DNA from: Picochlorum sp. SENEW3
Taxonomy: Eukaryota
Direction of reading: 5' to 3'
DNA: 64,000 nt
NCBI GenBank assembly: GCA_034226945.1
Contig: CP120457.1
Span: 248,001 to 312,000, forward strand
Shown one piece after another: positions 18,773-53,173 of the stretch (its first letter is position 1; each line of letters opens with the position of its first letter). The notes beneath the pieces were generated by a model. It worked only from the letters and a program-made list of their open reading frames with translations. It searched no databases and had not been told where the DNA came from. The translations under genes and the position numbers were made by a program.

Positions 18773-19981
18773 ATGGTTTTGATACTCTGTAGGCCATCGA
18801 TCAGCCTTTCGAGGCATCAGCAACACCGTTTGAGATTTTGGCCACAAAACTCTCCTCATTCTTCTTCTTCTTCTTACCCTCATCAGGTAAGAAGAAGAAG
18901 AAGAACAATCACTAGAGAAGACAAGAAGAGTCTTTTGATTGCTCGATCAGAGTCTGCGGATAGTCCACTGGTGGTACGGTATTGTTGTTGTTGGAGACTT
19001 GGTATTAGTATTGATTTGGTAAGAACATGTGGTGTCACAAATCATATTGTGCAGGAGGAGGCATCATCGTCAGAAAAGGTGGTTGGGTTTGTGAGTGCAT
19101 TTTGGAAGTTTCTGAGACCCCATACTATCCGAGGGACTATTCTGGGGTCTCTTGCAGTGACGTCAAAAGCATTAATGGAGAATCCAAATGCCATTGATTG
19201 GGGACTCGTTCCAAGAGCCATGCTGGGTGTCTTGGCATTGCTCTGCGGTAATGGATATATTGTAGGTATCAATCAAATATACGATGTGGATATTGACGCT
19301 GTGAACAAGCCTTTTCTGCCAGTTGCAGCTGGGGAATTATCGGCTGTCAAGGCATGGGTGATTTGTGTTGTGTTGGCGGCGACTGGACTGGGAATTACCA
19401 CGTATAATTTTGGATCATTGATTGCCAAATTGTATGCATTTGGCCTGTTTCTAGGAACCATATATTCTGTACCACCTTTCCGCCTGAAGAGGAGTGCGAT
19501 TGCGGCCTTTGCTATTATTGCCACAGTGAGGGGTTTCCTGCTGAATTTCGGAGTCTACCATGCTACAAGAGCAGCTCTCGGCCTTCCGTTTGTGTGGAGT
19601 CCCCCTATTGCATTCATCACAGTTTTTGTGACAATCTTTGCCACGGTGATTGCCATTACAAAGGATCTGCCGGATGTGGAAGGAGACAGAAAGTTTGGTA
19701 TTGACACCTTTGCGACACGAATGGGGGTCAGGAATATTGCCTTCCTTGGTTCAGGGTTGCTCATTGCAAACTATACCGGGGCTATTGCGTTGGCAATGCG
19801 AATGCCAGCTGCATTCAATGCATCAATCATGATTCCATTCCATGCTGTGCTTGCATTGCTCCTGACATACAAGACGTTGAAATTAGATGCAGCAAAGTAT
19901 ACAAAATCGGCTATTCAAGCATATTATAGGTTTATTTGGTACTTGTTTTATTCAGAATATGCAATTTTACCCTTCTTGTAA
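18773..19981 (+). CDS. HST: Homogentisate solanesyltransferase (plastoquinone synthesis, UbiA family); in-frame intron near 18975-19053
   Basis: '[13 protein letters not shown]', '[19 protein letters not shown]', 'KDLPDVEGD' and '[12 protein letters not shown]'. Transit-peptide-like N-terminus. Confidence 0.92.
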
Positions 19982-22153
19982 GAGGAGAACAGACTCGAGT
20001 TGTTGTAATAAATAATGACACGTGTCCTTGGTGGTGAATGGCGTCACCATGATGTATATGACGTCTCCCAGAGGTCGAGCATATATGTTTTGTTCGAGCA
20101 ATTTCTGAGCCAGGGCTGCAGCGGCGCCCGATTGATACCCAGAGTCGTCTGATTCAAGCTGTACAGAGACTACTGTGCCAAGTGAAAAAATCCCCTTGAC
20201 ACGAGAGAGATGCGATATCTTCTCCACTCGATCCTGATCCCACAACTCGATCAATCTATTGCATGAAGTCTCGCACTGCTTGGTACACGTGCCGTTCACT
20301 GGGGAGCACACGTTTGGGTTGGACAAGGGGTTGCCCATGGCTTGTAGAGAATACCGGCCTGCGGCGCACCCGACAGGGTGCGCCGTGTACGAGTGTCCAT
20401 GGAGGAGCGCTAGTGCTTTTGTGTCCCCCTGAAATGCGTTGAATACCTCTTCTGACGACAATGTGATGGACATTGGGACGACACCTCCGGTCAAGAGTTT
20501 GGCGTAGCAGCCAATGTCTGGTGTGATGCCAAGCAGCGATGTTGCCGCAGATGGAGCACCCAACCTCCAAATCCCGGTGAACACTTCATCGACAATCAAA
20601 GGGATGTTTCTTTCTCTACAAACGCGTGCCATGGCGCGGTGAAATTCCGGATCAATCATGCGCATGCCACCTGCTCCTTGAACAACAGGCTCAATAATGC
20701 ATGCTCCCACACAGTGGTCTGGATAGGCTTTAGCATGTGCATCCAGTGACTCTCGAATATGGACGTCATAGTCTTTAATATCGGTTTGAACGACCCATGC
20801 GCCATTCTTCATGGCCACAGTGGGTGGGTCCAGGAAGAGCCCTCGTCCCTCAAACCACGGAGTTTGCAGTCGTCCATTAAACACACTGGGAGGTACTGCA
20901 TCCATTGTTCCCAACGTATCGCCATGATATGCACCTTGGACTCCTAAGACGTGGAGTTTGACCTCATCGTCATGCAATATGTTGTGATCCACCATGTATT
21001 TGCGAAATGCCATTTTAAGCGCCACCTCGACAGCAGTAGACCCATTATCGCTGAAGAATGCTCTGGATGCCCAACCCTCTCCAACCTCACGAATCAACTG
21101 CTGAGCTACATCAAGGGCAGGTTTGTGTATGTTTCTCGGGAAGATGACGTGGCCATACCGTCCAATGGCGCCAGCAACCTCTAGAGCCATGCCGGGCATG
21201 TGCTCAGCATCCATCCCTTGCGTCCACCAGCTCGCACAGCCATCATACACGGAGCGCAGTGTATGATTGTTGTTTTTAGCATTCATTATAACCATATCTT
21301 CTCCAGCTCTAGAATCAATCACAGTGACATTTTCATACCCGCTTGAAATCTCTTGATGCTGGGTAAAAGGCCACCAGATGGAATGCAGCGCGCGCTCTCC
21401 AGCCTGTTCCAACCATTCCCTATCCTGTTTGGCACAACGATGCAAATACGATTCCATATCCCGGAATGTATCCATAGTATCCATCAACCATTGCTTCAAG
21501 TGTCTATCGATAATACCATCATCATTATAATTATTCTGGTCTGGTGGTGGCAAGCATGGCGACAATGGAAACACAGCGGCATCTACATGCTTTTCAATAC
21601 TCTTGTAATTGTCCAAACCAGAATTCTCCACGATGGCAATAACAGGAATCGAATATCCTCGTACTTTAAGCATCTCGTATGACGACAGTGTCGTCGAAAT
21701 ACCACCCAATTGACCATCCCCTACCAGCAACGCTGGGTACCTCAGTGGCCTCAGCAAGTCACACTGCAGCCTTCCACTCGGACCTGGACTTCCTGGTCCC
21801 CCTGCAGTCTCGAGCACCACTAGATCAGCAGCATCCGAGTTTTCTTCCGCCACGCTCTGTCGAATAGCTGACACGACAGAGGCATCATCTGGTGGTGATG
21901 TTCCTGCAGCCAGATGTGGACTCACAGCATCCTTCCAGGCAAACAATGTCTTGGACACGAAAGAATCACCAAGCCTCCACGCATCAACGACGCGAGATAC
22001 GAGGCGAGCATCGCTATCCTCTGGATATCCCGTTTGGACCGGTTTCAAATATTGGACAGCCCGGTGCTCTCGCAACGCCGACAGGACCAGTCCAGATGAC
22101 ACCAACGTTTTGCCAACGTTGGTGTTTGCTCCCCAAGTTGTAACAATCCTCAT
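19967..22153 (-). CDS. BIO3-BIO1: Bifunctional dethiobiotin synthetase / DAPA aminotransferase (BioD-BioA fusion)
   Basis: BioD motifs 'GANTNVGKT', 'KPVQTG' and 'LETAGG'. BioA motifs 'WWPFTQH', 'ASWWTQG', '[14 protein letters not shown]', 'YHGDT', 'DEVFTG', 'AKLLTGG' and 'HGHSYTAHP'. Confidence 0.97.
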
Positions 22154-22327
22154 CTAGTAGATGTTTTTTTTTCGATTGATAAAAAAAAAACATCGGTGAA
22201 ATTGTCGCAAAAAGAAAAATAATGTGGGTGGTGGCGCCCTTTGCATTTTTTTTGATTTTAGAGATGATCTGCTTGTCATCAAACAATTTTTTTTAAAACA
22301 AACATACATCTATCTACAATATGTAAT

Positions 22328-23515
22328 ATGGCCCATAATCACTCGTATGATGATTATCATTCATGGGTCACGGCACGTCTGGAGGAATTGAATGCTCGGC
22401 ATTTGCGACGACATCTAAACAACATAGTTCAACCCTATTGTCAGGCAGACAACAGATCGTTTAATAGTAATGATTATTTGGGATTGTCATCGCATCCTGC
22501 CGTGCGACAAGCTATGGCCAAAGTCGCCATGCAGTATGGCAATGGCCCAAGGTCCTCGGCTCTTGTGGCAGGATACACGCAGTATCATCGTGACTTGGAG
22601 ACTCAGATATCTCAATTGAAAGAGACGGAGGAGGCGGTATTATTTTCTTCGGGTTTCGCAGCGAACGTGGGGCTGCTCTCTTCATTGCTCAGTGAAGGAA
22701 ACATTGATGTGTTTTCAGACGAGTTGAACCACGCATCCATTATTGATGGTATCCGTCTGGGAAAAGCGTACAACAAGAGTTGTTCAGTACATGTGTATCG
22801 GCATAATGATATGGCGCATTTGGACGAATTATTATTATCACGTTGTAGGAGAAATAGGAGGAGACTCGTCGTCACAGATTCTCTCTTTAGCATGGATGGT
22901 GATTTCGCTCGTCTCCCCGATATTGTGCGATTAAAAAAAAAGCATGGGTTTCTTTTGATTATTGATGAGGCTCATGCCACCCTGGTATGTGGAGAGCATG
23001 GAGGTGGTGCAGCAGAAATGTTTGGTGTGCAGAAGCACGTTGATCTCCATGTGGGGACACTCAGCAAAGCTGTCGGCAGCCAGGGAGGCTTTGTGGCGTG
23101 CAGTGCCTCGATGAAGAACTTTTTAGTGAATAAAGGCCGAACACTTGTGTTTTCAACGTCGCTACCAATACCCTGTGTTGCGAGTGCTCAGATGGGCATT
23201 GTGATTGGGCAAAGAGAGCCTTGGAGACGACGGCACCTAGAACAATTGACACGTCGAATTCAACAACAAATAGGAAGCGGTGCAGCATCTCCAATTATTC
23301 CCATTGTGATTGGACCAGAGCAGCAAACATTGGAGATTGCAGATACCATGCAGAAAGATTATGGTTTTATAATACCTGCCATCCGGCCTCCAACAGTGCC
23401 ATCTGGCACCTCGAGGCTTCGGATATCATTGTCAGCGACACACAAGACATCTACAGTTGATGAATTAATTGAGGCGTTGATTGAGGCGACAAGGCCGCGA
23501 CGTGGCAAATTGTAA
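22328..23515 (+). CDS. bioF: 8-amino-7-oxononanoate (KAPA) synthase
   Basis: 'SNDYLGLS', 'SGFAAN', 'DELNHASIIDG', 'DSLFSMDGD', 'DEAHA', 'GTLSKA' and 'AIRPPTVP...SRLRISL'. C-terminus is RRGKL (PTS1-like). Confidence 0.95.
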   Translation: MAHNHSYDDYHSWVTARLEELNARHLRRHLNNIVQPYCQADNRSFNSNDYLGLSSHPAVRQAMAKVAMQYGNGPRSSALVAGYTQYHRDLETQISQLKETEEAVLFSSGFAANVGLLSSLLSEGNIDVFSDELNHASIIDGIRLGKAYNKSCSVHVYRHNDMAHLDELLLSRCRRNRRRLVVTDSLFSMDGDFARLPDIVRLKKKHGFLLIIDEAHATLVCGEHGGGAAEMFGVQKHVDLHVGTLSKAVGSQGGFVACSASMKNFLVNKGRTLVFSTSLPIPCVASAQMGIVIGQREPWRRRHLEQLTRRIQQQIGSGAASPIIPIVIGPEQQTLEIADTMQKDYGFIIPAIRPPTVPSGTSRLRISLSATHKTSTVDELIEALIEATRPRRGKL

Positions 23516-23601
23516 AAGGCAAAAGGAATAGTATTGATTGGGTATCAATACTACTTTCGGGTATCAATCAATCATTCAAAGGGGAGTATAACAATTCAAT
23601 T

Positions 23602-23632
23602 AACAATTCAGTTACGAATGGGTTTCTAAAAA
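23602..23632 (+). repeat. Copy of dispersed terminus-like motif (AACAATTCAGTTACGAATGGGTTTCTAAAAA)
   Basis: Near-perfect inverted match to ~42923-42953. The core also occurs at 32351. Confidence 0.8.
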
Positions 23633-23649
23633 CATTCCCGCGATGCTGT

Positions 23650-26290
23650 CTTTGATTACCTGCCTTTCATCGGGATCAGTGTCTTGATTTCAAATTTCGT
23701 AAATAGATTCGAGGATTCGTTCGGGGGCGTCTCTGGACCGACCAGCCTCATGCGAGATGGGATGGTGCAGCCCATGTGTTTGAACGTATGGTTTGATGCG
23801 AATACTTCAAATATTTGGACATACACAGATGGTTCCAAACATACGGGGTGTTTGCTTGTGGACTTGAACATGAAACAGGGCAGTTTGAGGACATATGTTG
23901 GTCGTTGCCGACAGAAGAGGCTCTAAATGCGTGGCAGATGTGTTGACCAACAGAGAACTGTAGCCAGGTCTGTAGAAGTTCGAGCATGCACCGATATTGT
24001 AGGCAATGCCATGTCCCTTTAATTCCTTTCATCATACTATATATGATTCCTCAGTCATTTGATAGGTGTTGTCTTCTTCGTATATCAGGGTTTGGTCGCA
24101 GTATCCGTGATACATCTGAGATCCTTTGGGGTACCTGAGTTGCTCACTTGCAGTCATACCTTTCCTTGCAATGATTGGTGTGCATCAATCCGGTATCCTT
24201 CGCTTCTAGATAATGCTCTATTGTTTCTTAGAGGCGAATCTCTTGGCGCTTTGGTCGCTGTTTTATTTTCTTGAATCTTCTTGTCTTCTATTTCCCACTG
24301 TATGGATGTATGTCATTCCAACCTATACCTTCCCTTTTTTTCGGCAGATATTCGTGATTGTCTCGATTCTTTTGTTTTATCTCATCTGATCGGTAAATAT
24401 AATGCTGGGTTTTGTGTGCTGAGAGGTCAATTGAAGGTATGGACTCAACATCACAGGACGGAGGCTTCTCTCACCTGGAGGTGCTGAAAGTGAGATGTGG
24501 TTGGTATAGAATGGTGCAATAATTCCTGATATTTGTCGAGTGCTTCCTGAATTGATAATCTGCCTCAAAGTGATTTCTTGTGGTTGATGCCAGCTTGGAA
24601 TCAACAGCCTTCTGGATTCCTTGGACACAAGGACTTTGTGAGGCCGGATCAATACGATGGTGTGGCATTCCTATTGTCCCCCTCATATGCATATGATTTG
24701 AGAATTCTCAATTGGGACTGATTTTGTAAAGCGATCCCGTCAGTCAAATCCACCATATATTGTATTCAAATCAATTCCATTTGAGATGCTAGTGCTACCC
24801 TACTATCCGATGTATCCTACTCTGTCTCAGTGTACACATAGCGAACCTGGAAATTGGATTAGACAACAGACAGGCCGTCTCTCAACGAAGCTTCAGGTCC
24901 AGCACAGACGAGACACGAGTCTTCAATCAATGGGATAGAAGCAAGGATGCTATGAATAGGGTCACAATGACTATCTCACCTGGAAAACTCGCTTGGCTGT
25001 CAACCCTTGGTGGGTAAAAAAAATTAGACCCAGATCCACATTTGTTAGCAGGTCCCAGGTTCCTTCTCCCCATCAGATTCCACACTTAATAAACTCAGCC
25101 ATGGAAATGAGTCCCAACGGAAGCAATATTGATGGTATCAATATGCTAGAAAGTTGCATCCCGTGAGAAAGGGCACAGGTAGATTCTTGATGCTCTACCG
25201 TTGAGACTAAAACCTTCATCTGATGGTCCTTGCTGAATAATTCAGATCCGGCCACTCTTTTGGACGGTGTTGATTCATTCTCTGCATGCTAAATGTACTC
25301 ATGAACCGAGTTTGTTATCAAAACATGCAAAACCATGAGAATATTTCTTTTTGCAACAGTTGGACCAGTCAAAAAAGCCATCTGTTCTGGAGGAATACAT
25401 GTATAACTTTGTGGTCCAATGCAATTCCCCCGAATTTGATCATACGTGCCGGGCTCAAAGGATCCGGGCTGCCTGACTTTGGTCTTGGAGGTGGATGAGT
25501 AAAATATCGGGACATATATTGGTCGGGGCGGACGGAGGACATGCTCTGAATGCAGGGCAGTTGTGTTGACTGACAAAGTGTTGACAGAACAGCACCCTCT
25601 CATGCACCTCATGAGAATCAGTGCCATGTCAGTAACCATTTGCTGAGGAGTATACTGATCACTCTTAACATGAGCAATTACATCGAAGCTTCTCTCATCT
25701 CTTTAGATGTTCATGAAATGCTCTTAGGTGCTCTCTGATGTTCTTAGAGCTTTGTCAGGTTCTCTGATGATCTTAGATACTTGTTGAATGTTCATGAAAT
25801 CTTCTTTCATCTTCTTTGGCACTGCTGTTTCCGTAATAAGTTGGGGGCACTCTTGGGAGTGGGTCGATCGAGAGTATCGGCCGGCCCACCTAGATCGGCG
25901 ACAGATGAAGAAGATCGGTTTCGAAGGTGTCGGCAGCTCGCCTTTGCGGCGCTGGGCCGCCCAGCAGGAACGCCCGTTGCCGCCCGGACCGTAGCCCAGC
26001 CCAGTTTTTTTGGAATATCTTTTCGTCGGGGGCCGAGCGAGGAAATTTCGGGGCCTGGTGAGGGAGCGATTTTCGGCCCATTTCCGGAAATCGCGCACAT
26101 CGGCGGACACCGCCCCCCGCCCCCGGCACCTCCGCCAGCGAGAAATGCAAAATCCCACAGTTATAGAGCGTGTTATTCGATTGGGAGGCTCGTTTCCGCG
26201 CGATCGGTCGCGCAGTGGACGCGCCGATTTAAAGAAAATCCCGATTTTTTTATGGTTACAGCTGTAATCCTTAATCTACGCATCGCAAAA
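23650..26290 (-). pseudogene. Degenerate coding-like segment with a GC-rich right end (probable decayed TE/cargo)
   Basis: Four minus-strand ORFs (25724-26158, 25289-25639, 25073-25255, 24377-24652) share one frame and are separated by stops. There is a GC-rich island at ~25860-26240. No family recognised. Confidence 0.35.
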
Positions 26291-26523
26291 AAAAAAATTT
26301 TTTGGGAACTTTTTTAATGTTCTAAATATATATTATACAGGCTGGTGCTGTAACCCACACTAATTATTTTGGGCAACGCTCCTGGGTGGAGAGCCTAGGA
26401 GATGTGACAGTTTCTTGGTCAAAAATCGACTTGTAGTGCCACTACATACAGATGAATATAAAGATATAGAACAGGAAAGTCGTGCAGAAAAATAAAGCAA
26501 ACCATATCTCGGATCTTATAAAA

Positions 26524-28885
26524 TCAAAATGGGCACTCTTTAATACGTTCCCATGCTCCAGTTTCTCTGTTGGCCTGGTAATACTGCTCAACAGAATCGC
26601 CATCAAAGCAAATCTTGACCATATAGCCTGGAGCATGTTTGTTCTCAGAATACGTCGAGGAACGGTCGAATCTTGCGAAAAATTTCTCCAGATTCTTTTT
26701 TACCATGGTCATGCGTTTGTTCATCTCAGATTCATTACGCTGCACAGAGGCCTTCTTGAAAAAAGCTCCTTCCTGGTGTGTACCCTTCAATACATAATGA
26801 TCTGTATTCATTCGAATCAGCAGGAATGGAATGTCCTTGGCAAGCCAGTCATGAGTGATCACACGAGTGCGTCGAGCCTCCTGCAGCATGCAATAATGCA
26901 TATGCTGCCATTCGTCCACTTCCAAGGCTGCTGCAATCCTATGAGCAGAATTTTCTTTTCTTGCAAAGCAAAAGTCGATTCTATAGGCACGCCCCGTGGT
27001 ATTGTTTTTGAAAGGGTACCACCTGCCAAGGGACTCGCGCCTGATGTTGAATACGTCTGACACATTATTATTGAGCCATGCACTTGCCATGTCTTCCTTG
27101 ACTTTGCGGCCTGTATTGTCTCCAGAATACCCACTGGATATATAACGCTGGATACATTGGATAGTTTCTAGAGGAAGATTGGATTCATTCTCATCGAGGT
27201 AATGCCGAGCACAGAGATGCCCTTCGAATCTCCTGTACACAGGCCCATCGGCTAGGTTCTGCTGGCATTCTTTCAGGCATCGTTGACATGCTCTAGTGAT
27301 TTCCACATGCTTGGTTTGATCATAATGTGATGAGCAAAGGATTCGCTTGCCATCTCTTGGCAGGCCATACCAGGCAATGGCAGTACACCCCTCGTGCGTG
27401 CAGGTTGACGTGAGGAGATACACCATATCTGGCTCTTTGCATGCATTGCATCGTTCCAAGCGATTTGTTGTGGCTCCCTCGCCATCATATCCATACGATG
27501 CGGTCATCGTGTTGCATTTATTGCATACTGGGTTAGTCTTTGTGTAGCTCCCAATAAGTTTGCTATACCGCTGTCGTAGAGATGCTGCAGTCCTTCCTTT
27601 GAATGTCCCACTGGCCGCAAGTGCATCCCAACACTTTCCCACTTCCTCAACAGATTTCAAAAGACGTAAATCTTCATCCTCAGTGTAATGAGCCGATTTG
27701 ACCGAATATGCGCGGCTGTGCTCCTTAAGATGCTGTTTGTAATTTCTGAGGACAATAGGAAGTTTTGTGCATGGTCTGTCAATCTCTGGGAAATAGTCCT
27801 TACCTACCTTTGCCCAGTCTATATGTCCCAATTTATTGATATGATACTTTTCATTTTGTGACAGCGATAATAGCAGGGTTTTCTGTTCGGATGTCCATTC
27901 TCTCCGCTTTGAAGGCGACTCTGTTGACTGTTGTTCTCTGACATATTTGATCTTCTTCTTGATGGATTCCCTATTCCTCCAAGGCATCAGATACTTACTG
28001 CAATATGCTCGCAGACTCCCCCATTTTGTATCTATATACTCTCTTTCTGGACCATCTTTCAGAAAGGCTGCCACAGCTGCCCTGATCAAGTTCTCCTCAT
28101 CCTCATCATACTTGCCCTTCTTGGACTTGTATTCTTCACCGTAAACGGCATGCAAGATGTTTCTCTTTTCTTCGACTGCTTCTTCCAGATCCTTCTTACC
28201 TTGCGCATACCTTGAAGGAGCATCTGTGATGCTATTGCCTTGGGCATCTCCATGCACCCTTCATGCAGAATATATACATGGTCAATCAATGTAGCATAAT
28301 TAGGCCTCTCCTCTCATGAATCACACATGGATGTGTTATGTGTATGATATTGACGTACCTGTCACCTGACTTCTCCAGAGGGGCGAATGGCACTCCCAGA
28401 TTGACAGAAACCTCTGTGAGACGTCCTTGCATTGGAGTGCTCTTGACCGCGTCTGGACAGATCTTTTGGGGAGATGGATCACAGCAACGCTCACCAGAAA
28501 ACAAGCAAGTGCTATCATTGTTTAGTAACTTGAGACGCTTTGCTTCACGAGGGCCATATGCAACCTGTGGAGCAGTGTTTTCTTGATTCTCCTTGCATGT
28601 TTTTGTTCTTGGAGAATAATTCGCAAGATCATCCTCTAAACATGGAACATGAGACTCCGACTGGCTTCCTGTAAGGTCCACCACCTCTACTGTTGCACCA
28701 CTGCTATGCTCAAGGGTCTCATCATACAAGGAATCAGTCTCTCGATAGGTCAGAGTGACATCATCATCATCATTGTTGTTGTTGTTGATAGGCTGCTGTG
28801 GAAGACTATGGGATGATGCGACAGGCTGAAAGTAGAATGTAATCAGTCTGTTGTTTAAGGATGCCTCTTCTTCTCTTGGACCCAT
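26524..28885 (-). CDS. Myb/SANT repeats + EsV-1-7-like Cys-rich repeats + PD-(D/E)XK-type endonuclease fusion (intron 28259-28358)
   Basis: Myb repeats 'REWTSEQKTLLL...DWAKV' and 'YTEDEDLRLLKSVEEVGKCWDAL...GRTAASLRQRY'. Cys repeats 'CNKCNTMTASYGYDG...RCNACKEPDMV...CTHEGCTAIAWYG...LCSSH'. Nuclease 'YRIDF...LEVDEWQH...IRMNTDHY'. The upstream exon splices in frame (AG|G GTG). Confidence 0.8.
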
Positions 28886-29207
28886 TGAGAAAACCTGCAA
28901 GTGACATATACAATGATCAACTAATAACTATCATTAAAACAGAGAAGGGTAATTTCGCATCGCATAAATCACGTCTTGGCGTACCTTTTTCTATTTTCAC
29001 TGTCGTATACAAAGCGATTTGGAAATACCACGCCACTCGTGTTGTGATTCAAGCAGTCTTTGATGTCCTGCTGTTGTGTATATATAATTATTATTGAAGA
29101 CTATTACCATCTGAAAACTCTTCTTTCCATCGTATGATAGCAGTGTACGAGAGACATTTGATCTCATCGCATTCAAAATTGGAAGCATCATTCGATCACT
29201 GGCTGGT

Positions 29208-42953: not shown

Positions 42954-43451
42954 CTACAGAATATCCACCTCAGAGAGAATCTCGCCAACGGATCAGATCC
43001 ATGCGCATCAGCAAATTTTGCTATATCACGCCTTCTCATCCTTCGAAAGGGATGATGAGGAGATTCTGAGCTCCGCTGGGAACTTGCCAGGTAGTTTGTG
43101 CCTACTGTAGGTCTTCTCACCTCTTGTACTAGCTTCTTTTCCACTCTTTCGGTTGCCTCAGACCTCAGATTTTTTTTTCTTATTGGATAGCTACTTCTCG
43201 CTGGAAACTTGTGTTTTTATGGTACTCTGGATCAAGGTCGTTTATGACAGTTTTACCTGCTAGAGTTCCTCTGACACTGGTCTCCTCCCTGTATTAGTGG
43301 GTTGATAACAGGTGGAGTCGTATCTCGAGTTGAATCAATAGCGTAGATTTATTTGCCACTGCATTTGTTTCTCTGGTGTTTTTTCCTCTTCGCCAATGAT
43401 GCCTGGAGTGGGGCCTCCGACGGACGAATTCCTCCGTCGACACGGAACTAC

Positions 43452-43492
43452 CAGCACCTATAGGTAGCTACTGGTGCTGTAACCCACACTAG
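43452..43492 (+). mobile_element. Helitron-like 3' terminus (hairpin + CTAG before T)
   Basis: Stem CAGCACC...GGTGCTG, a 9-nt spacer, then CTAG followed by T. The same 21-mer CTGGTGCTGTAACCCACACTA recurs at ~26342 and ends CTAA|T. Confidence 0.6.
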
Positions 43493-43954
43493 TTAATTAT
43501 CATGAAACACTGCAGCCTGTTACCAATCCACAATACACACATCCTTATCCAACAGCAAAAGTACTAATAGAAATAGAGATCACCAGATCTTGGGGTTGGC
43601 ATAGAACAACACCATGATGTTTCCAACAGTTTGCTTTGATTGTGAATTACTGTTCACGAATGAACTTGCCCTGCAGGAGACAGGTCAAACCAGCCCATGA
43701 AAGCCAGAATAGACACTTCAGGCCTCCCTTCCCTGGTGGAATGGGGCTCAGAAACATGTAAAAACCCTGGAAATACCACAGGATCACTTGACGTGGCCAA
43801 CACAGGGCTCTAAGACCCAAAACTGCTCAGACTGACCGGCAAGACACTTCAAAATCGAATCATAATTTGGGTCACTGCGGCATTTTCTGCTTCCATACAT
43901 TTCTGCTTTCATCTGTATGTAGTGGCACTCCAAGTCGATTTTTGATCTCTTCTT

Positions 43955-46648
43955 ACCAAGAGACTCTCACATCTCCTAACGTATCTTCTATCTCCGATCA
44001 AACGTTCCTTTTGATGGCATACACTCTCAGGGAAGGGTTTCCCACGATCCCTTCAAAAAGAGCCTTTGACAGGGCATGTCAATCGAATTCGCGAATTCGA
44101 ATTTACCCGCGCTTTGAAGGACACACGATTCGAGAATCAATCAGCAAAACTCCGCCATCATGAGGCACTGCAGCATGGAATAGCCCTCCAATTCATATTA
44201 TATATCCAACAACAGTAGTAATTATCCTCTGTTTAGGCACTGACTGTCTTTTCTTCTTCTCAAGTGTTGAGAGTAGAGCAGAGTAGTCGAACGCAAAGTC
44301 AACTTCAAACCGAAACACTTGTACGTGCTGTCATATGTGATTCGTATCACATAGATATGAAATATTGATGTATATATGTGTCTGGAACCCGTTTTTATCG
44401 CTACAAACGGTTTCAACCGCAGCGCTGCGAGCGACATCTACTACTAGATGAAGCCGAACAGCTCGGATCAACAATTCTGTCACAAACACTTTGTCGCGGC
44501 TTGTTCTATCCAATTCACAACGATTCATAGACATGTTACTATTGTCGATATGCAGAGGCAACGGTGATATAGCATAGAGTGCTTTTCGGTTTTTCTTGCT
44601 TTCTTTTTCTCTTTCTTTGCCAAACGAACGAACCATGGCCAGCACCGGAAGACTTGCTGCCCTCAATGGCATCTGCAGCGAGAAATTCCACAAGATACTA
44701 TCTGAAAATGGGATCAAAGCAAGGGGCACCATCAGTGGTGGATCTGAATCGTATAGCAGAGACGTATTTTGTCTTCCAAATGATGTACCACTGCCACTTT
44801 CTCATTACAGAATCGTCTTTCCCGTGGCAGTTGACGTGAAAACTGTCAATTCAGCTTTCAGGATAGCCCTTGGCAAGGATATGGCGAATCATACCGTCTG
44901 TCCCGAGGCAGCCAATGGTAGCACAAAGGAGCACTCGTTTTTTGTGTATGTGTCTAGCAATCTCAAAGATTCGCTGGGCGAATCATGCATCAGAGATGAA
45001 CAGACCAAAGAAAACCTTCTTGTGGTATATAATGCATCTCAGCCGGAAAACACTACCTGTAGTGACATGACACTTTACCAGCGACTGTGTGCACTTGTCT
45101 TGCTGTATTCTTTCATCCTGTTCAAAGCGGATGCTCGGGCACTGAGGATTCAGCAAGGTACCTTCTTCTCTATGCGGTTAAAAGATATAAACAAAACTCT
45201 TAAGAAGAACTGCAAGCGCACTGCAAGTCAGATTGTGAGGAAAGCGCAGAGATCTCTTCTGGGAAAAGCCTATGCAACATACCAGTTAAACTTGGAGCAA
45301 CCAAAAGATTCGATAGATGTTGCCATACCAAGAGAGGATGCATCCCCATCCAGCAGCAAAGGTACAAAGAGACCAATAGATCTTGAGGATAATGGACTAC
45401 AGCATGATGATGTTTCTCCGCGTTCTCTGGTGCGACAAAAAATGGTACCAGGAGGAGATGGTAGTGGCGACACACCAGAACAGAATGCCTCTGATGATGG
45501 TGCTTTTGATACGTCCCCTGACTCTGTCTTGCCGCAGCCAACATGTCAAGGAACTCCTGCCGCAGAGTCTCTTCCAGGATTCAATGGTATCTTACCAAGA
45601 CGTCCTGATAACGGCGGACAGCATGATGCTTTGCGTCTGGTGCAACCAGAAGGAAAAGGATCTGGGATTGACCTGTCATCAGTACAGGGGTACAACAATG
45701 CCATCTTCGCTGGGCTCCCTGACTCTGTCTTGCCGCAGCCAACGTGTCAAGGAACTCCTGCCGCAGAGTTTCTCTCAGGATTCAATGGTATCTTACCAAG
45801 ACGTCCTGATAACGGCGGACAGCATGATGCTTTGCGTCTGGTGCAACCAGAAGGAAAAGGATCTGGGATTGACCTGTCATCAGTACAGGGCTACAACAAT
45901 GCCATCTTCAATGGGCTCCCTGACTCTGTCTTGCCGCAGCCAACGTGTCAAGAAACTCCAGTCGCAGAGTTTCTCTCAGGATTCAATGGCCCCTCGGACG
46001 ATGACATCTTGCAGAATTCCACTCCAGGAACCCCTTTGTTTGTCAACGACAACCAGGATGGCTTTTTCATGGAGAGTTATGATCCATTTGCCGAGGCAAA
46101 TCCCTTCAATGACGATGAAAATCGTTCCCTATAATCTCCATGATCGCATGTGCATGATTTCTGAGAAGATCAATATACTAGAAGTACAGTGCGTGTGTGT
46201 GAGAGTGGAAAGAGTACATGTGCGGTCATGGTGATGAGTAGTGAGGGGTGACGAGTATCATGAAGGGATGGCATGCGTGTGAGGGCCTGTTCGAATCTTT
46301 AGAATCTTTAGATCGATGGGATGCTAATAATATATGGAAATATATATATATATATATCTAGCAGCAGGGTTCTGGCCATCAACATGGCCATCTAGTAGGT
46401 ATGAATTCATCAACACAATGAATTATTTCATGCACTGTTCGTACTTGATTCATTTTTTCGCTCTTTCTGTGCTTTTATTTATCTTTCTCTGTAATTCTCG
46501 AAGTAGAGCAATGCATATGCATATGCATATTGGGGCTCCTTTAGGTTTCCCTCTCTCCCTGGCTCGTGCAGGCCACGTTGCCTCAGAGGACGAGGGCCAC
46601 AGGGACAAAAGGAAGCCCCATGGGCATGATATTGTATATTGTTTCTTC
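43955..46648 (+). repeat. Right arm of inverted duplication (partner 29613-32089)
   Basis: Near-identical upstream and downstream flanks and 3' coding half. Confidence 0.93.
44635..46134 (+). CDS. Hypothetical protein, paralog B of the inverted-arm family, with a 201-bp (67-aa) internal tandem repeat
   Basis: ATG context AACCATGGCCAGC is the same as in paralog A. 'PDSVLPQPTCQ' units start at ~45517, 45718 and 45919. Confidence 0.82.
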   Translation: MASTGRLAALNGICSEKFHKILSENGIKARGTISGGSESYSRDVFCLPNDVPLPLSHYRIVFPVAVDVKTVNSAFRIALGKDMANHTVCPEAANGSTKEHSFFVYVSSNLKDSLGESCIRDEQTKENLLVVYNASQPENTTCSDMTLYQRLCALVLLYSFILFKADARALRIQQGTFFSMRLKDINKTLKKNCKRTASQIVRKAQRSLLGKAYATYQLNLEQPKDSIDVAIPREDASPSSSKGTKRPIDLEDNGLQHDDVSPRSLVRQKMVPGGDGSGDTPEQNASDDGAFDTSPDSVLPQPTCQGTPAAESLPGFNGILPRRPDNGGQHDALRLVQPEGKGSGIDLSSVQGYNNAIFAGLPDSVLPQPTCQGTPAAEFLSGFNGILPRRPDNGGQHDALRLVQPEGKGSGIDLSSVQGYNNAIFNGLPDSVLPQPTCQETPVAEFLSGFNGPSDDDILQNSTPGTPLFVNDNQDGFFMESYDPFAEANPFNDDENRSL

Positions 46649-46901
46649 AAAATATATCTTTATAACGATATATTTCAATGAAACACAGAATACCGCTGCG
46701 CGATGTTTTGAACGGTTCCGACATGGGCACCAAGAAGAACATTCGGTCCAGGCACCTCTCCAGCCGTACGGCGACGCGTCGCGACGGTGACACAATGAGA
46801 ACATTGGACCTTCATGCAACAACAGCGTTTGGGCGATAGAAATGGCTCAGCCCCATGTGGGCGAGATGAAAGAAATTTACATCAATATATAATTTGAAAT
46901 C

Positions 46902-47312
46902 ATGGATTCTGAACTGATTCAATGCCCAAACTGTGGTAAGTGGCTCAAGGTGCTTGGCACACAACACTACAAAGGTTGTGCTGGCATAACGAATGAGGAA
47001 CTGCGAGATCGAATAGTCCAAGCCAGCAAACAAGCAACAATTATGAGGAAAAGAATGTACAATAGGGATCGGGATGCAAGAAGACTGTACGGGGGAAAAA
47101 AGCTCCGTGTGGGTCCACATGAGGACAATGATGATTCTCTGGTCTGCAAGACCCGCCTGAACAAGTTTGAGAGAGCACTGATTGAGGCTGTACCTCGTCT
47201 GCCGAGAAAAAAAGAGGTGGGTGACGGTTTCATGAAAGCTTCCTGGGACTCTATGCATTGCCAAAGAGCACGATCCACAAAATATCACTCCCAAAATACA
47301 CACACTTGGTGA
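46902..47312 (+). CDS. Small basic hypothetical protein with N-terminal Zn-finger-like motif
   Basis: 'CPNCGKWLKVLGTQHYKGC' followed by an R/K-rich helix. Confidence 0.4.
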   Translation: MDSELIQCPNCGKWLKVLGTQHYKGCAGITNEELRDRIVQASKQATIMRKRMYNRDRDARRLYGGKKLRVGPHEDNDDSLVCKTRLNKFERALIEAVPRLPRKKEVGDGFMKASWDSMHCQRARSTKYHSQNTHTW

Positions 47313-47415
47313 TACGATGGGATCCTTTGCTTTGTGGCAAAAAAGTAATCTGTAATTCATTTACTAATATTATTATTCATCATGAACACCATATATATAA
47401 CATAGCAACAAAAAA

Positions 47416-49596
47416 ATGGGGGGTTCCGACAACGACCACTGCACATGCATCCATCTCATCTTTGGCCCTGGTCCTATTCAATCAACAATCTTGAGCCATC
47501 TTAGCAACGTATTTTGTTTAAAAGAAGTCCAGGCCTGTATCAGTCTGCACGCGCTCGGGTTTTTGAGTACCGAGGACTTGAGGGACCATTTGACGAAACA
47601 TTCAAAGAAGCCTCCTTTGATACTGCCTCCTTCTAACGGCGATGATTTTCCACTTTTTAAGACTGCTGGGCGCATGCTAGGTGCGGAAGAGCGAACAGAT
47701 ACAGAAGTATCGCCGCTGTTGAAGGGGGCGGGCCGTTCGATGACGCATGAGGGTTTCAGGCAGCATTATAGATACATGGAATACGTTCCTTTGGAGGTAT
47801 ACCGCGTGGTTCGGGCCGGATTGAGTGCCACGCGACAAATGAGGATGCTCTTTGAGAATGAGAGTAATGGTGATGATATCAGCGACATGTACTGGAGATT
47901 GAGAAGAAATCATGTGGTCAATCTTTTTGATGGAGCTTGCGAAGCGGGGTTTGATGTGGAGGACATTGAAAGGATCATTGCCCTTTTATTTCGCAGGGGT
48001 GGGACTTCTCTTAGAGAGTTGCCTTCGGGGCTATGTGGCGCATCAAGATATGGGCACATGCATGTCGTCAGATATTTGTGCAAGACAGTGAGCAGTGTGG
48101 CTGCATTCAGGGTTGCATGTGAGAATGGGCATATTGACATTGCCAAGTACCTCTATGAGACAATAAACAATACTCTTGTGGATGTGAATGAAAGGGATGA
48201 CGAGGGCAGGACAGCATTCATGCTTGCTTGCAGTCATGGTCATCTAGACATTGTCAAATATTTATATGAGACAATTGGCAATGTGGATGTGCATGAGCGG
48301 GCTTCTGACGGTGGCCAGACAGCATTCATGCTTGCGTGCAAACATGGTCACATGGACATTGTCAAATATTTATATGAGACAATAAGCCACGTTGATGCCA
48401 ATGCCAGGGATTATAACAATAACACAGCATTCATGCTTGCATGCAAACATGGTCACATGGACATTGTCAAGTATCTCCATGAAGCACTAGGCAGCGTGGA
48501 TGTATTACGCGTCATGGATTATAACAATTGCACAGGATTTACGATGGCATGTCAATTTGGCAGGATGGATGTTGTCAAGTATCTGTATGAAACGATAGGT
48601 GACATGGATGTCGACGTGGATGCCAGAGAGACCTTCTACGGGCATACTGCATTCATGAGTGCTTGCAAAAGTGGCGATATTGACACTGTCAAGTACCTAT
48701 ATGAGACAGTAGACAATACTCTTGTAGATATCAATGCCAGGGATTACCGAGGCCTAACAGCATTCATGCTTGCATGTGAAAACGGCCACAAAGACATTGT
48801 CAAATATCTGTACGAGACAATTGGCAACGTTGATGCCAATGCCAGGGATAACGAGGGCAAGACAGCATTCATGCTTGCATGTGGGTGTATAATCACCAAG
48901 CATGATGCCGTCAGTGCCCATATTAGTACTGTTAGGTATCTCTATGACACAATAGGCAATGTGGACGTCAATGACAGGGATCACAAAGGTCGTACAGCAT
49001 TCACGCTCGCGTGCAAAAATAATCAGGAAGACATGGTCCAGTACTTGTATGAGACAATCGGCAATCTGGATGTACATGTAAGGGATGACGAGGGCAAGAC
49101 AGCATTCATGCTTGCATGTGGGTGTGAACTTCTCGGGTTTATTGGCACAGGTGCTGTGAGATACCTGTATGAAACACTAGGCGACATGGATAAGAATGAT
49201 AGGGATCACAAAGAGCGGACTGCATTTATGCTTGCTTGTCAAAGTGGTAACATGTACGTTGTCGAGTACTTGTATAGCAGAATGGGCAACAACATTGATA
49301 TGAATGACAGGGATTGTGACGGGCGAACCGCCTTCATGCTTGCTTGTCAAACGTTTCAGGTGTTCATTGTCAAGTATTTGTATGAGACAATCGGCAATGT
49401 GGATGTGAATGCAAAGGATAACGAGGGCAGGACAACTTTGATGCTGGCATCTTGGAATGGCCACCTCCACGTCGTCAAGTACTTGGTACAGACTGTACAG
49501 GTGGATGTGCAGGACGAGGACGCTGATGGATGGACAGCGATAGACTATGCAGAGGACCGGGAACATGACGAGATTGTCGCTTTTTTCATGTCCTAA
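47416..49596 (+). CDS. Ankyrin-repeat array protein (true start uncertain)
   Basis: About 13-15 repeats of 'TAFMLAC..GH.DIVKYLYETIGNVDVN.RD.EG', intronless. Confidence 0.92.
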   Translation: MGGSDNDHCTCIHLIFGPGPIQSTILSHLSNVFCLKEVQACISLHALGFLSTEDLRDHLTKHSKKPPLILPPSNGDDFPLFKTAGRMLGAEERTDTEVSPLLKGAGRSMTHEGFRQHYRYMEYVPLEVYRVVRAGLSATRQMRMLFENESNGDDISDMYWRLRRNHVVNLFDGACEAGFDVEDIERIIALLFRRGGTSLRELPSGLCGASRYGHMHVVRYLCKTVSSVAAFRVACENGHIDIAKYLYETINNTLVDVNERDDEGRTAFMLACSHGHLDIVKYLYETIGNVDVHERASDGGQTAFMLACKHGHMDIVKYLYETISHVDANARDYNNNTAFMLACKHGHMDIVKYLHEALGSVDVLRVMDYNNCTGFTMACQFGRMDVVKYLYETIGDMDVDVDARETFYGHTAFMSACKSGDIDTVKYLYETVDNTLVDINARDYRGLTAFMLACENGHKDIVKYLYETIGNVDANARDNEGKTAFMLACGCIITKHDAVSAHISTVRYLYDTIGNVDVNDRDHKGRTAFTLACKNNQEDMVQYLYETIGNLDVHVRDDEGKTAFMLACGCELLGFIGTGAVRYLYETLGDMDKNDRDHKERTAFMLACQSGNMYVVEYLYSRMGNNIDMNDRDCDGRTAFMLACQTFQVFIVKYLYETIGNVDVNAKDNEGRTTLMLASWNGHLHVVKYLVQTVQVDVQDEDADGWTAIDYAEDREHDEIVAFFMS

Positions 49597-49647
49597 TATT
49601 ATGCTCTATGAAAAAACAATGACACAATCCAAAAAAGTATCCATGTA

Positions 49648-50413
49648 TTAACAAAAAGGACGAGGAGGAGTATTCTTACGAGCCTGTACCAGGCACTCGA
49701 TCCGAGGCTCAAAATGGTGCAGCACCCTCCTGTACACATCCCGCTTGAAATCCACCACCTTTTCCGGCAGCTCATGCAATGGCATCCACCGCCACTCACT
49801 AAACTCTGGAGACCCATGACACGTCAAATCAATCTCATCATCATCTCCTTCAAATTCCATCAACAACCACTTTTGCGTCTGCCCTCGATATCGAAGATAT
49901 CCATCACCAACATGGCTCTTCACCTTTGTTGGATATTCATAGTCCAACCAACCATCAATAGACCCAACCACTCGCACTCGAGTCATCCCAGTCTCTTCCT
50001 TCAACTCTCTCTTTGCAGCCACCAGAGGATTCTCCATCGGATCAATACCTCCCTGCGGCATTTGCCACGTCTGAGCAGAATCATCCATCCGACGAGCAGC
50101 AAACACCAACCCTTGCTGATTCACCACGCACAAACCCACCCCCCGACGAAACTCATTCATATTATGAACAATGATGTTATTAGTATTGCTTGCTACCGTG
50201 CTGCTACTTTGTTGTCGCTGCGTCGATGATGAAGAAGAAGAACATGAGATTATTGTATTCTTATGAGTATCATGTTTTTGAATCGTCCCAACAGTGCAAT
50301 TGCTTCTTCTTATCATTGTGTTCGTATGGGTAACCCTAAGTTCATATATAGAATGATAAGTATTAGTATTTACTATACGTGGTCTTTGCCACGTCGATGC
50401 CATATTCATCATC
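49648..50413 (-). CDS. Nudix hydrolase, RppH/Ap4A-hydrolase type (NUDX26-like), probably plastid-targeted
   Basis: 'FRRGVG', Nudix box 'WQMPQGGIDPMENPLVAAKRELKEETG', 'GQTQKW' and 'EFSEWRW...VVDFKRDVY'. Confidence 0.9.
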
Positions 50414-50736
50414 AGGCCGAAGCTGACGAATTTTGTTGTTTTGATCCGATCAACCCTTGTTGTTGTTGTTGTTGTTGAAAAAGAACAACAAGACAAAACT
50501 ATTCGCAACAACAATACTGTTAATAAATAAGGGTATTAATAATAATAAAATAAAAATAACAAGGCGTGAATGCCCGAATCAACGTTGGGTCGTAGATGAC
50601 AGATAGATGGATATCAGATCTCGGAGGCCCGGATTTGAACCCTTTTCTTCATTAATTAATGAGTCACCGTCAACAACAACAATCCCTCAACGCTACTTGG
50701 CCAACAAAACCTACTACTACTGTCCTTGACGTAGCA

Positions 50737-51597
50737 TCAATTGTAACAAACAATATCATGCCTATACTCGGGATGCTCTGTGCCCATGAGCCAATCCCAA
50801 TGTGTCATGTACAAACTAAAATGAACATGAGGAAACCTATGATGCATATCATGATGCCTCACTGTATTCAACAACGGCGACGATTGCTTAGGATTATTCT
50901 TCTTCTTAGCATGACTACTCTTCTTACTAGTAGTATTCCTCACCATATTAATGGTGTGAGAGAGAATCAGATGGAGCACCCCTTCCGCACTGGGAATATA
51001 GGGCGCAATCTCATACCCAGCATGCCCACCATTATGTATCACCGTCATATACATATGATACACTCTATGAACCCCTATATGCATAGGAAACAAGAAACAG
51101 ACAAAGATTTCGTTGGCAAAGACAATCATCGCCTCTATACTATGAAAACTATATCCTGTAAATGCTGTGGGTACTGTTGACTGGTGATGTATGTAATGCA
51201 CTCGCCTGTACAACAGTTTCGTATGCAATAAACGATGCGTCCAATAAAACCATGCGTCGTGAAGGTAGTCTAAAGCGATGGCTGTGCACAGGGCAGAGCC
51301 CAGATGGACTGGTCTATTGCTGTAGAGAAGACTGTATCCACTCGTGTGAAGCTTTTCCACAAACGTCCATATCAATGCTTTCACCACCAATGGGCCTATA
51401 CTATTCAATGCTTCTCGTGTTACTTGACCTATTGCATGTTTTCTTTTTCTTGTACCGCCACTATGTGTGTAGTGGATGGGTGATACTGAGCAGAATCGAG
51501 GAACAATGACATGCAGGAAGAGAGCTGCCAGGTAGTAGACAAGCGATGCCTGTGCAAATGCCTGTGTAAATCCACCTCCATATATGTACGAATTCAT
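50737..51597 (-). CDS. Fatty acid hydroxylase / sterol desaturase family diiron membrane enzyme
   Basis: His boxes 'YWTHRLLH', 'VHYIHH', 'HAGYE' and 'HHDMHH', plus 'WDWLMGT'. Confidence 0.92.
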   Translation of the reverse strand: MNSYIYGGGFTQAFAQASLVYYLAALFLHVIVPRFCSVSPIHYTHSGGTRKRKHAIGQVTREALNSIGPLVVKALIWTFVEKLHTSGYSLLYSNRPVHLGSALCTAIALDYLHDAWFYWTHRLLHTKLLYRRVHYIHHQSTVPTAFTGYSFHSIEAMIVFANEIFVCFLFPMHIGVHRVYHMYMTVIHNGGHAGYEIAPYIPSAEGVLHLILSHTINMVRNTTSKKSSHAKKKNNPKQSSPLLNTVRHHDMHHRFPHVHFSLYMTHWDWLMGTEHPEYRHDIVCYN

Positions 51598-51867
51598 GAT
51601 AATAATACTTGTGAAATTTTTTGAAATGCCATGGATGCGATTGGTTTGACCATCCTCTCACCAGGATGCTGGGGCACGTGGCACAGTATGATGGATGGAT
51701 GTATCGATATATCGGTCAACGGTGTGGTTTGACCGATGGATACTCATTGGTTGGTCAGGGTATGTATGTATCGATCTGCATACAACTCGATGATCATATG
51801 ATACATTTTCAATTATTTCTTTCTGTTTTGAAAAACAATCAATTAAAAAACACTACTACTAATAATA

Positions 51868-53173
51868 ATGCAAGCATTGGTGAGGAAGACGGTTGGGCAG
51901 AGGGTGCTCGCAGCGACATGGGTACATGCAGGCATGGACTGTCGACTGCTGTCTTCAGGCAATGCTGTGATGAAGGCGGCAGAGGTATCCATGGTGGAAG
52001 ATGCTGGGTATCAGTCAGAGGAGCCGCGATGGTTGCGGGAATTGGGCACTGTTCGCAATGATTGGACGTGAGTCTATTTTTTTAAGAGTGCTACATTTTT
52101 TTCTTTCGATTGCTTTTCTTTTTCTTCAATACCACGAATACACACATCTATTTACAAATATATATAAATGTAGTCGAGAGGAAGTGAAGGAGGTGTATGA
52201 GAGCGGGTTTTTGGACCTGGTGCACCACGCGTCGTCAGTCCACCGTCAACACAATGACCCATCCATGGTACAGCGTTGTACATTGTTGAGTATCAAGACG
52301 GGAGGGTGTCCAGAGAATTGTAATTATTGTAGTCAGTCGAGTCATTGGAGTAAAGAGACTGGGACCAAGGCGGAAAAGTTGATGGATTTGGAAGATGTGT
52401 ATCAGGCTGCGGTGCGGGCCAAGGAGGCTGGGAGTACACGGTTCTGCATGGGGGCGGCGTGGAGGGGTCCGTCTCAGGTGGGGAAGAGGCAGTGGGAGCG
52501 GGTGTTGGATGCTGTGAAGCGTATTCGTGCGTTGGATATGGAAGTGTGTACGACTCTTGGCATGTTGACACCAGAGCAGGCAAAAGAGTTGAGGGAGGCT
52601 GGTTTGACTGCGTATAATCACAATTTGGATACGTCTCCAGAGTATTATGAAAAGGTGACGACGACGAGAAAATATCAGGATAGATTGGATACGATTGAGA
52701 GTGTTAGACAGGCTGGTATTTCCGTGTGTGCTGGAGGCATTATTGGGTTGGGGGAGAGCCACATGGACAGAGTGGGGTTGTTCCATCAGCTGGCCACGTT
52801 GCCTGCGCATCCCGAGTCTGTTCCCATTAATGCCTTGGTTGCGGTCAAGGGTACGCCGTTCCAAGATCATGAGGCGCCGTCTGGATTGGATATTGCGAGG
52901 TGTGTGGCGACAGCAAGGATTTTAATGCCAAGGACAGTGGTGCGATTGTCTGCCGGAAGAATGAATTTTTCATATTCGGATCAAGCCTTGTGCTTCTTGG
53001 CGGGAGCGAATTCTATTTTTGATGGAGATAAATTGCTGACGACGCCGAATAATGATAGGAATGAGGATTTGGAAATGTTTTCTCTTCTGGGATTGAAGAG
53101 CAGGCCTGCCTTTGTGCCATATGCATCTGGACAAGAGAGCAGCAATGGCGCAGAGTCTTCTTCTTGTTGTTGA
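51868..53173 (+). CDS. BIO2: Biotin synthase (radical SAM), mitochondrial; intron 52068-52173
   Basis: 'NDWT|REEV', CxxxCxxC 'CPENCNYCSQS', 'RFCMGAAWRG', 'AYNHNLDTS', 'PESVPIN' and 'GANSIF.G.KLLTT'. Presequence-like first exon. Confidence 0.97.

Follow-up and report, generated by a model that had tools for sequence, protein, structure and literature searches.

A window of 64,000 nucleotides from the genome of the green alga Picochlorum sp. SENEW3 (contig CP120457.1, positions 248,001 to 312,000; "the window" below means this whole stretch) contains three genes, bioDA, bioF and bioB, that together encode the BioF, BioA, BioD and BioB activities of biotin ring assembly. These genes belong to a group of five, bioDA-bioF-Nudix-FA_hydroxylase-bioB, which is contiguous in a related organism and is split in SENEW3 by an island of additional DNA between bioF and Nudix (Table 1). 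With a probability of about 0.82, we interpret this group as an inherited physical cluster of three nuclear genes covering the four steps of ring assembly, in which the compact form is older and the 26-kb island came later. In this pathway, BioF joins pimeloyl-coenzyme A (CoA) or pimeloyl-acyl carrier protein (ACP) and alanine into 8-amino-7-oxononanoate (KAPA), the BioA domain yields 7,8-diaminononanoate (DAPA), the BioD domain yields dethiobiotin, and BioB inserts sulfur.

The window is compact nuclear DNA (42–56% G+C) with long reading frames and few introns. Each of the four activities best matches its own family in Pfam, NCBIfam and, for BioDA and BioF, the PDB, in agreement with a first-pass annotation, made from the nucleotide sequence alone, which had placed all four late steps in the window. 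The bioDA gene encodes a fusion of an N-terminal dethiobiotin synthetase and a C-terminal DAPA aminotransferase, of the plant BIO3-BIO1 type, with a BioD-type AAA_26 domain at residues 8–193 and an Aminotran_3 domain at residues 302–723. Its best NCBIfam match is bioA TIGR00508 (E 6.7e-82; 275 bits, cut-off 405), and its best solved structure is the 831-amino-acid (aa) chain 4a0g (E 1e-182), which we take to be the Arabidopsis BIO3-BIO1 enzyme; bacterial BioA chains reach only ~1e-40. For bioF, the best NCBIfam match is bioF TIGR00858 (E 1.1e-114; 383 bits, cut-off 426), and the best PDB matches carry the name 8-amino-7-oxononanoate synthase. The bioA and bioF matches fall under the curated cut-offs for bacterial equivalogs, and bioB, with 362 bits against TIGR00433 (cut-off 225), lies above its own. 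The start of bioB had been placed correctly at 51868, and the two-exon model is exactly the deposited 399-aa SENEW3 biotin synthase (100% identity), with a first exon encoding a 67-aa presequence-like N-terminal extension. The catalytic motifs read from the translations are intact, namely the CxxxCxxC motif of BioB, typical of radical S-adenosylmethionine enzymes (CPENCNYC), and the BioD P-loop (GANTNVGKT), and the bio reading frames contain no internal stops. The SENEW3 BioDA frame begins right at this P-loop, without a presequence; the ortholog in the relative described below is ~56 residues longer at its N-terminus. Among the BioF relatives, P0474 (638 aa) and P0483 (646 aa) combine PF00155 with PF13500/PF01656, that is, they are BioF-BioD fusions, unlike the plant BioD-BioA fusion.

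Once positions 23516–49647 are taken out, the five genes occupy ~7.2 kb, close to the ~7 kb given by the first-pass annotation. They form two divergent pairs, bioDA with bioF and FA_hydroxylase with bioB, and Nudix, which is not a known biotin enzyme, lies between the pairs. As had been noted, bioDA and bioF stand head-to-head, their start codons bounding a 174-bp spacer that is presumed to be a bidirectional promoter. The earlier description of the group as operon-like holds in the loose sense of a eukaryotic cluster; it fails in the bacterial sense of one strand and co-transcription, because the bio genes lie on both strands, in two divergent pairs, with two non-biotin genes between them.

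An island-free version of this locus came from a metagenome scan with BioB as the query (152 stretches matched, 101 relatives, the best 80 kept). One of the loci kept, L002, from an 83-kb contig, carries SNF2, a homogentisate phytyltransferase-like gene (HPT), bioDA, bioF, Nudix, FA_hydroxylase and bioB in the order and orientation of the window, with the island absent. The encoded proteins share 84% (SNF2), 91% (HPT), 60% (BioDA), 58% (BioF), 68% (Nudix), 54% (FA_hydroxylase, FAH) and 92% (BioB) aa identity with those of SENEW3. The five-gene stretch from bioDA to bioB measures 7.7 kb, the spacer between bioF and Nudix being 587 bp long compared to 26.1 kb in the window, and two blastn blocks are collinear, L002 3–6740 with window 16621–23173 and L002 7788–11669 with window 49745–53975. 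Given that L002 is compact and has the same flanking genes, the SENEW3 block is secondary, inserted in the tail-to-tail spacer of bioF and Nudix. The first-pass annotation had proposed such a secondary interruption and had suggested that relatives be searched for an allele without the island, which L002 supplies; the prospect, raised there, that bioB is unlinked from bioDA and bioF in all relatives does not hold. In Picochlorum tauri, a single scaffold, tig00000168_1 (1.94 Mb, 944 genes), carries BIOF, BIO1-BIO3 and BIO2 (PMC12458973, Tables S8 and S12), and BIOF and BIO2 have gene-model serials 0.272 and 0.274 (PMC12458973), which probably reflect gene position. According to the available part of the same source, P. 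tauri was kept on vitamin-free medium (PMC12458973). Past bioB, by ~1.1 kb, L002 carries on the minus strand (12132–20048) a gene for a 2,638-aa, single-module, fully reducing protein resembling type I polyketide synthase (PKS) and fatty acid synthase (FAS), with the domains KS-AT-DH-ER-KR-ACP; among solved structures, it is closest to mycocerosic acid synthase and animal FAS, and the matching place in the window holds 1.2 kb only (53975–55146).

Table 1 Features of the biotin locus in the window and in the island-free locus L002.
Sequence	Feature	Position	Strand	Evidence or remark
Window	HPT, homogentisate phytyltransferase-like (UbiA)	18716..19981	+	Pfam UbiA; NCBIfam NF009525, 260 bits vs cut-off 226
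Window	bioDA, dethiobiotin synthetase + DAPA aminotransferase	19967..22153	-	728 aa
Window	bioDA-bioF intergenic, divergent	22154..22327		174 bp between start codons; 184 bp in L002
Window	bioF, KAPA synthase	22328..23515	+	395 aa
Window	Composite island, bioF 3' end to Nudix 3' end	23516..49647		26.1 kb; absent from L002
Window	Repeated element just 3' of bioF, ~2.7 kb	23633..26305		X1 contigs, depth 268–278 vs 55–61 in flanks; 21–22 letters differ from window
Window	Myb + EsV-1-7 cysteine-motif gene	26524..28257	-	Pfam; stretch of single-copy depth
Window	Left arm of large (2.5-kb) inverted duplication	29613..32089		Holds open reading frame (ORF) 30115–31410 (-); 91–96% complementary to 43955–46648
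Window	KDZ (Kyakuja-Dileera-Zisupton) transposase element, ~6.7 kb	32091..38830	+	ORFs 32706–33623 and 33601–35976; ends approximate
Window	G+C-rich tandem duplication, unit ~1.02 kb	40256..42170		40261–41080 vs 41283–42103 at 99%; GC 0.565
Window	Right arm of inverted duplication	43955..46648		Holds ORF 44596–46134 (+) with 201-bp tandem repeats
Window	Ankyrin-repeat gene, tail-to-tail with Nudix	47416..49596	+	726 aa; Pfam Ank families; no counterpart at this place in L002
Window	Nudix hydrolase, RppH-like, long N-terminal extension	49648..50514	-	Pfam NUDIX; NF001938, 179 bits vs cut-off 116
Window	FA_hydroxylase-family membrane di-iron oxidase	50737..51597	-	Pfam; divergent pair with bioB
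Window	FA_hydroxylase-bioB intergenic, divergent	51598..51867		270 bp
Window	bioB, biotin synthase	51868..53173	+	Exons 51868–52068 and 52175–53173; 106-nt GT..AG intron
L002	bioDA	3347–5725	-	tblastn + ORF calls
L002	bioF	5910–7112	+	tblastn + ORF calls
L002	Nudix	7700–8374	-	tblastn + ORF calls
L002	FA_hydroxylase	8577–9587	-	tblastn + ORF calls
L002	bioB	9881–11044	+	tblastn + ORF calls

Linkage in other green algae was judged from locus tags, scaffolds and equal longest-contig sizes listed with the protein matches. In Micractinium tetrahymenae, bioF (ABPG75_007530) and bioB (ABPG75_007525) are linked, and in Elliptochloris bilobata BioF, BioB and FAH are each listed with the same longest contig, of 317,441 bp. 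Linkage is also found on three further contigs, with lengths of 520,730 (BioF, BioB and FAH), 130,041 (BioF and BioB) and 205,759 (BioF and FAH). In a quick BioB tree, which is weakly resolved with many open forks and served only for the rough placing of contigs, the first two fall among Chlorella-, Picochlorum- and Auxenochlorella-like sequences (supports 85–94). The three genera Picochlorum, Micractinium and Elliptochloris belong to the Trebouxiophyceae, and these tags and contig sizes indicate that bioF and bioB are linked, if more loosely, in other members of this group as well. Related species thus keep the arrangement, as judged from L002, the P. tauri scaffold and serials, and the Micractinium tags.

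The first-pass annotation had assigned nearly everything between 23.6 and 49.6 kb to transposable elements (TEs) or accessory DNA. A KDZ domain, high-depth repeats and duplications bear this out for part of the block, for which "TE island" is a fair description; the rest is accessory DNA of unknown function. A scan of 33 island reading frames detected the KDZ transposase domain (PF18758, E 8e-8, 32.7 bits against a cut-off of 26.6, with profile positions 70–217 alone matched) in one frame and no Pfam family at cut-off in the other 32, and two further island ORFs, scanned separately, match Pfam, namely the Myb/EsV-1-7 gene and the ankyrin gene. The EsV-1-7 motif takes its name from a brown-algal virus. 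A 31-nt motif at 23602–23632 is repeated at 32335–32367 and, inverted, at 42923–42953. Terminal repeats and target-site duplications of the KDZ element were not resolved in the self-comparison of the window. Contig joints, with sides of 22–48 nt at 90% likeness and partly from metagenomes, are hints rather than proof, and this includes the one short-sided, empty-site-like joint for the KDZ element, 32090>38831 in sequencing run X6.

Copies of the island segments were compared by per-contig depths, rather than summed depths, within run X1, which is source-like, with contigs that total 13.3 million letters and show no differences over the single-copy parts of the window. Depth is 55–61 over bioDA/bioF, 26.4–29.8 kb and 30.4–31.3 kb (the contig over 26424–29780 having a depth of 60.9 and 0 differences from the window) and rises to 187–278 over 25.2–26.2 kb and 34.6–38.6 kb, the contig depth of the KDZ element being 187–229, or 3–4 times the flank value. 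Compared with the window, the high-depth contigs show 5–22 letter differences, as expected of collapsed repeats, and these segments appear to be multi-copy (3–5 times flank depth). Runs from other organisms and metagenomes share 35–45% of the sampled words of 19967–29966, and in three of them, X5, X6 and X12, there are contigs at 90–99% likeness over both bioDA/bioF and the Myb/EsV-1-7 segment. Because these contigs reach the Myb segment, at least a part of the island predates this strain group. In X12, the summed contig depth is ~150–275 over the KDZ region compared to ~7–10 over bioDA/bioF; summed depth is no copy number, but it hints at many more copies of the KDZ element in that organism.

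In this interpretation, the compact five-gene cluster of 7.7 kb is the ancestral state in the Picochlorum lineage, and ~26 kb accumulated in the SENEW3 lineage where bioF and Nudix meet by their 3' ends, in the sole tail-to-tail spacer. Among the added DNA are a KDZ DNA transposon and other repeats, as well as an inverted duplication and orphan genes; the insertion disrupted no coding sequence and neither of the divergent promoter regions. Each divergent spacer might act as a shared promoter, and selection, more than slowly decaying synteny, may have preserved the linkage.

The island could, in principle, connect two stretches that lie apart in the actual genome. A 20.6-kb short-read contig from the source-like run covers 19001–23732 with 0 differences and stops at 23732, within a repeat, and no single contig spans the island. 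However, the two island flanks lie side by side in L002, an independent contig, so a misjoin would have had to bring true neighbours back together; weak joints lead from the 3' end of bioF to the Myb segment (23632>26306 in X1 and X6, 23479>26514 in X6), although with sides of 23–46 nt they are hints only; and the published assembly, as described in the available part of PMC11092101, used Oxford Nanopore Technologies reads and Hi-C. An assembly artefact thus appears highly improbable. Still less credit can be given to a bacterial bio operon that was acquired by horizontal transfer and later broken up. Bacterial loci of the BioB scan do carry bioB-bioA-bioF in a row, and the accessible portion of PMC11092101 cites an earlier SENEW3 genome paper for horizontal transfers. 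Nevertheless, the nearest homologues of BioB and BioF are from green algae, followed by land plants (50–92% identity), with bacteria scoring below; the BioD-BioA fusion has the plant-type order; bioB is interrupted by a spliceosomal-type intron; and the bio genes sit on both strands. Judged by these similarities, bioB and bioF are of plant type and were inherited vertically. Given the green-algal and land-plant relatives, the plant-type fusion and the bioB intron, a transferred operon is very unlikely, and the cluster was in all likelihood put together from resident genes.

A further explanation is neutral linkage, that is, genes brought together by random rearrangement of a highly compact genome and still adjacent because synteny decays slowly, with no co-regulation or selective value. 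We regard it as possible but rather unlikely, and a number of observations speak for it or otherwise weigh against our interpretation of the group as an inherited cluster. The two interposed genes, Nudix and FA_hydroxylase, have no known role in biotin synthesis; the 26-kb insertion was tolerated, so tight proximity of bioB and bioF is not needed for viability; and SNF2 and HPT are equally syntenic between SENEW3 and L002, so that conservation between these two alone shows no selection. The two divergent spacers of the window have no common motif, nor do the spacers of SENEW3 and L002: a comparison of four divergent spacers, two in the window and two in L002, revealed no conserved promoter motif, and no k-mer of at least 8 was present in three of them, the common 7-mers being A/T-rich, and the TGGTTTGACC-like repeat of the FA_hydroxylase-bioB spacer was found neither in the bioDA-bioF spacer nor in L002. 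The bio genes are unlinked in Chlorophyceae and Ulvophyceae. By tag or scaffold, bioF is separated from bioB or FAH in Chlamydomonas eustigma, Volvox africanus (two assemblies), Edaphochlamys, Chlamydomonas sp. UWO241, Sanguina, Monoraphidium minutum, Bryopsis, Ulva and a pedinophyte, and neither bioF nor bioDA is present at metagenomic locus L004 within 4.3 kb beyond FAH or at L012 in the 3 kb before and the 10 kb after bioB. The comparison of bioDA-bioF adjacency covers the Picochlorum lineage, and the short-read contig and the joints mentioned above bear on the left island junction only. Set against neutral linkage are the recurrence of linkage in Micractinium, Elliptochloris and the three further contigs, and the insertion itself, which hit the only 3'-3' spacer and spared both 5'-5' spacers. 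In addition, with the 6,564 predicted genes of SENEW3 (PMC11092101, available part), we roughly estimate the chance that two given genes are neighbours at ~3e-4 and that a third lies within three genes of them at ~1e-3. On balance, we favour an inherited cluster over chance linkage.

The divergent pair of bioB and FA_hydroxylase, the "desaturase" of the first-pass annotation, is conserved across the core chlorophytes (Chlorophyceae and Trebouxiophyceae), including Picochlorum SENEW3, an observation that is new here. Among the nine eukaryote-like metagenomic loci in which 900 bp or more precede the BioB match, FA_hydroxylase lies just upstream of bioB on the opposite strand in seven (L002, L004, L010, L068, L076, L078 and L079) and is missing at L012 and L080. 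The locus tags of the two genes adjoin in Chlorella vulgaris, Edaphochlamys, Gonium, Astrephomene and Sanguina, are four tags apart in Haematococcus, and belong to separate scaffolds in Ulva. The same gene pair, a biotin synthase with a PTHR11863 sterol-desaturase-like neighbour, appears in rows 231-232 of SI file 1 of Foflonker & Blaby-Haas 2020, with entries for C. reinhardtii, Volvox, C. zofingiensis, Coccomyxa and Chlorella variabilis and a coexpression score of 2.65 (sum of mutual ranks; pair cut-off 168, lower values being tighter). In Chlamydomonas, FA_hydroxylase ranks close to first among the genes coexpressed with bioB. The pair is confined to that supplement and undiscussed in the accessible main text; the supplement also records prasinophytes as having BioB and lacking the FA_hydroxylase protein (Foflonker & Blaby-Haas 2020). 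In the same table, the SENEW3 FA_hydroxylase is scored "Absent" and the biotin synthase is placed outside the neighbourhood, whereas the window shows the two genes paired, and among the rows listed there is no bioF or bioDA neighbourhood.

In Chlamydomonas, the ortholog of the FA_hydroxylase gene is Cre06.g261200, which carries the annotation ERG25, a sterol C-4 methyl oxidase (SMO), and for which the literature reports induction by singlet oxygen alongside other sterol genes; this annotation and co-induction favour a sterol role. The ERG25/SMO label was assigned by homology alone, and the proteins of two algae assigned as "SMO2" are only 29% identical. For Cre06.g261150, no mention was found in the literature. 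The histidine boxes are complete and invariant in our alignment A1 (H113, H121, H125, H134, H137, H138, H192, H249, H252 and H253). The ortholog group is tight, with only 26 clusters at E 1e-30 in a library of 1.84 billion proteins before a drop to ~1e-25. Among 20 sampled nearest non-ortholog clusters (two sets of ten), none was named methylsterol monooxygenase, and those named after an organism were bacterial (Pirellulaceae, Roseibium, Alkalinema); a PDB sequence search with FA_hydroxylase returned 0 matches at E up to 1. A metagenome scan with FA_hydroxylase as the query matched at least 600 stretches, with 583 relatives. In the best 80 of these, none of the bacterial loci had bioB or bioF within 8 kb, and the bacterial context therefore does not support a biotin role; two of the 80 had weak class-III aminotransferase matches (24–30% identity).

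Most likely, then, FA_hydroxylase is a sterol or lipid oxidase that shares a promoter with bioB. To our knowledge, the source of the pimeloyl precursor in plants and algae is unsolved, and the cluster might extend beyond ring assembly, with FA_hydroxylase supplying or processing this precursor oxidatively and the PKS-like gene of L002 as a possible second route to a C7 diacid. The model for such a function is the oxidative acyl-chain chemistry of the bacterial cytochrome P450 BioI and the di-iron oxygenase BioE. We consider this extension improbable; the old and tight bioB/FA_hydroxylase pair is nonetheless a concrete candidate for the pimeloyl-precursor question, with a sterol enzyme the more likely outcome.

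Eukaryotic metabolic clusters are recognized by at least three adjacent, non-homologous genes of a pathway, and such an arrangement is found within the five genes and 7.7 kb of L002 and, split by 26 kb, in the window. Eukaryotic genomes rarely have clusters of primary-metabolism genes, and biotin ones are known from fungi; the green-algal biotin cluster is a new instance of this kind. Filamentous ascomycetes have the same three genes, bioF, bioDA (likewise a BioD-BioA fusion) and bioB, adjacent in a eukaryotic nucleus, Saccharomyces BIO3-BIO4-BIO5 being the yeast example, and the excerpt available for Beauveria describes a cluster of BIOB, D and F. For yeast, horizontal transfer plus clustering of the biotin genes was reportedly described by Hall and Dietrich in 2007. 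The algal cluster differs from the fungal ones in its lineage, its vertically inherited plant-type genes, its two interposed genes and, in SENEW3, the 26-kb island. Arabidopsis has the same enzymes (BIO3-BIO1, BIO4/BIOF and BIO2) with the same fusion, at unlinked loci. In bacterial bio operons, as in the bacterial loci of the metagenome scan, the same pathway genes are adjacent; however, an operon is read from one strand as one transcript, with bioA and bioD as separate genes, in contrast to the two strands and separate promoters of the alga. As the first-pass annotation had supposed, the cluster seems to be undescribed: no account of an algal biotin cluster was found in the full-text literature, where "bioF" largely matched "biofuel" and "biofilm", the Picochlorum papers that report "functional gene clusters" (Foflonker et al. 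2015, 2018) being outside that literature. A second, independently assembled biotin cluster made of vertically inherited plant-type genes is a natural comparison for how and why clusters form, with three states to compare, compact (L002), split (SENEW3) and unlinked (Chlorophyceae). According to the accessible portion of the literature, Cas9 tools exist for Picochlorum.

The cluster is flanked by HPT, the 3' end of which overlaps that of bioDA by 15 bp. No tRNA genes were found in the 64-kb window. Genes for an enoyl-CoA hydratase (8833–9675, minus strand) and a mitochondrial carrier (4601–5488, minus strand) lie 10–15 kb away from bioDA. A histone deacetylase domain is divided between the adjoining plus-strand frames 59449–60222 and 60222–60767 (span 59449–60767), suggesting that a frameshift or short intron separates them. 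A second mobile element spans 499–3146, with a DDE_1 endonuclease fragment (893–1339) inside a 650-bp inverted repeat (499–1140 against 2491–3146, 96.6%).

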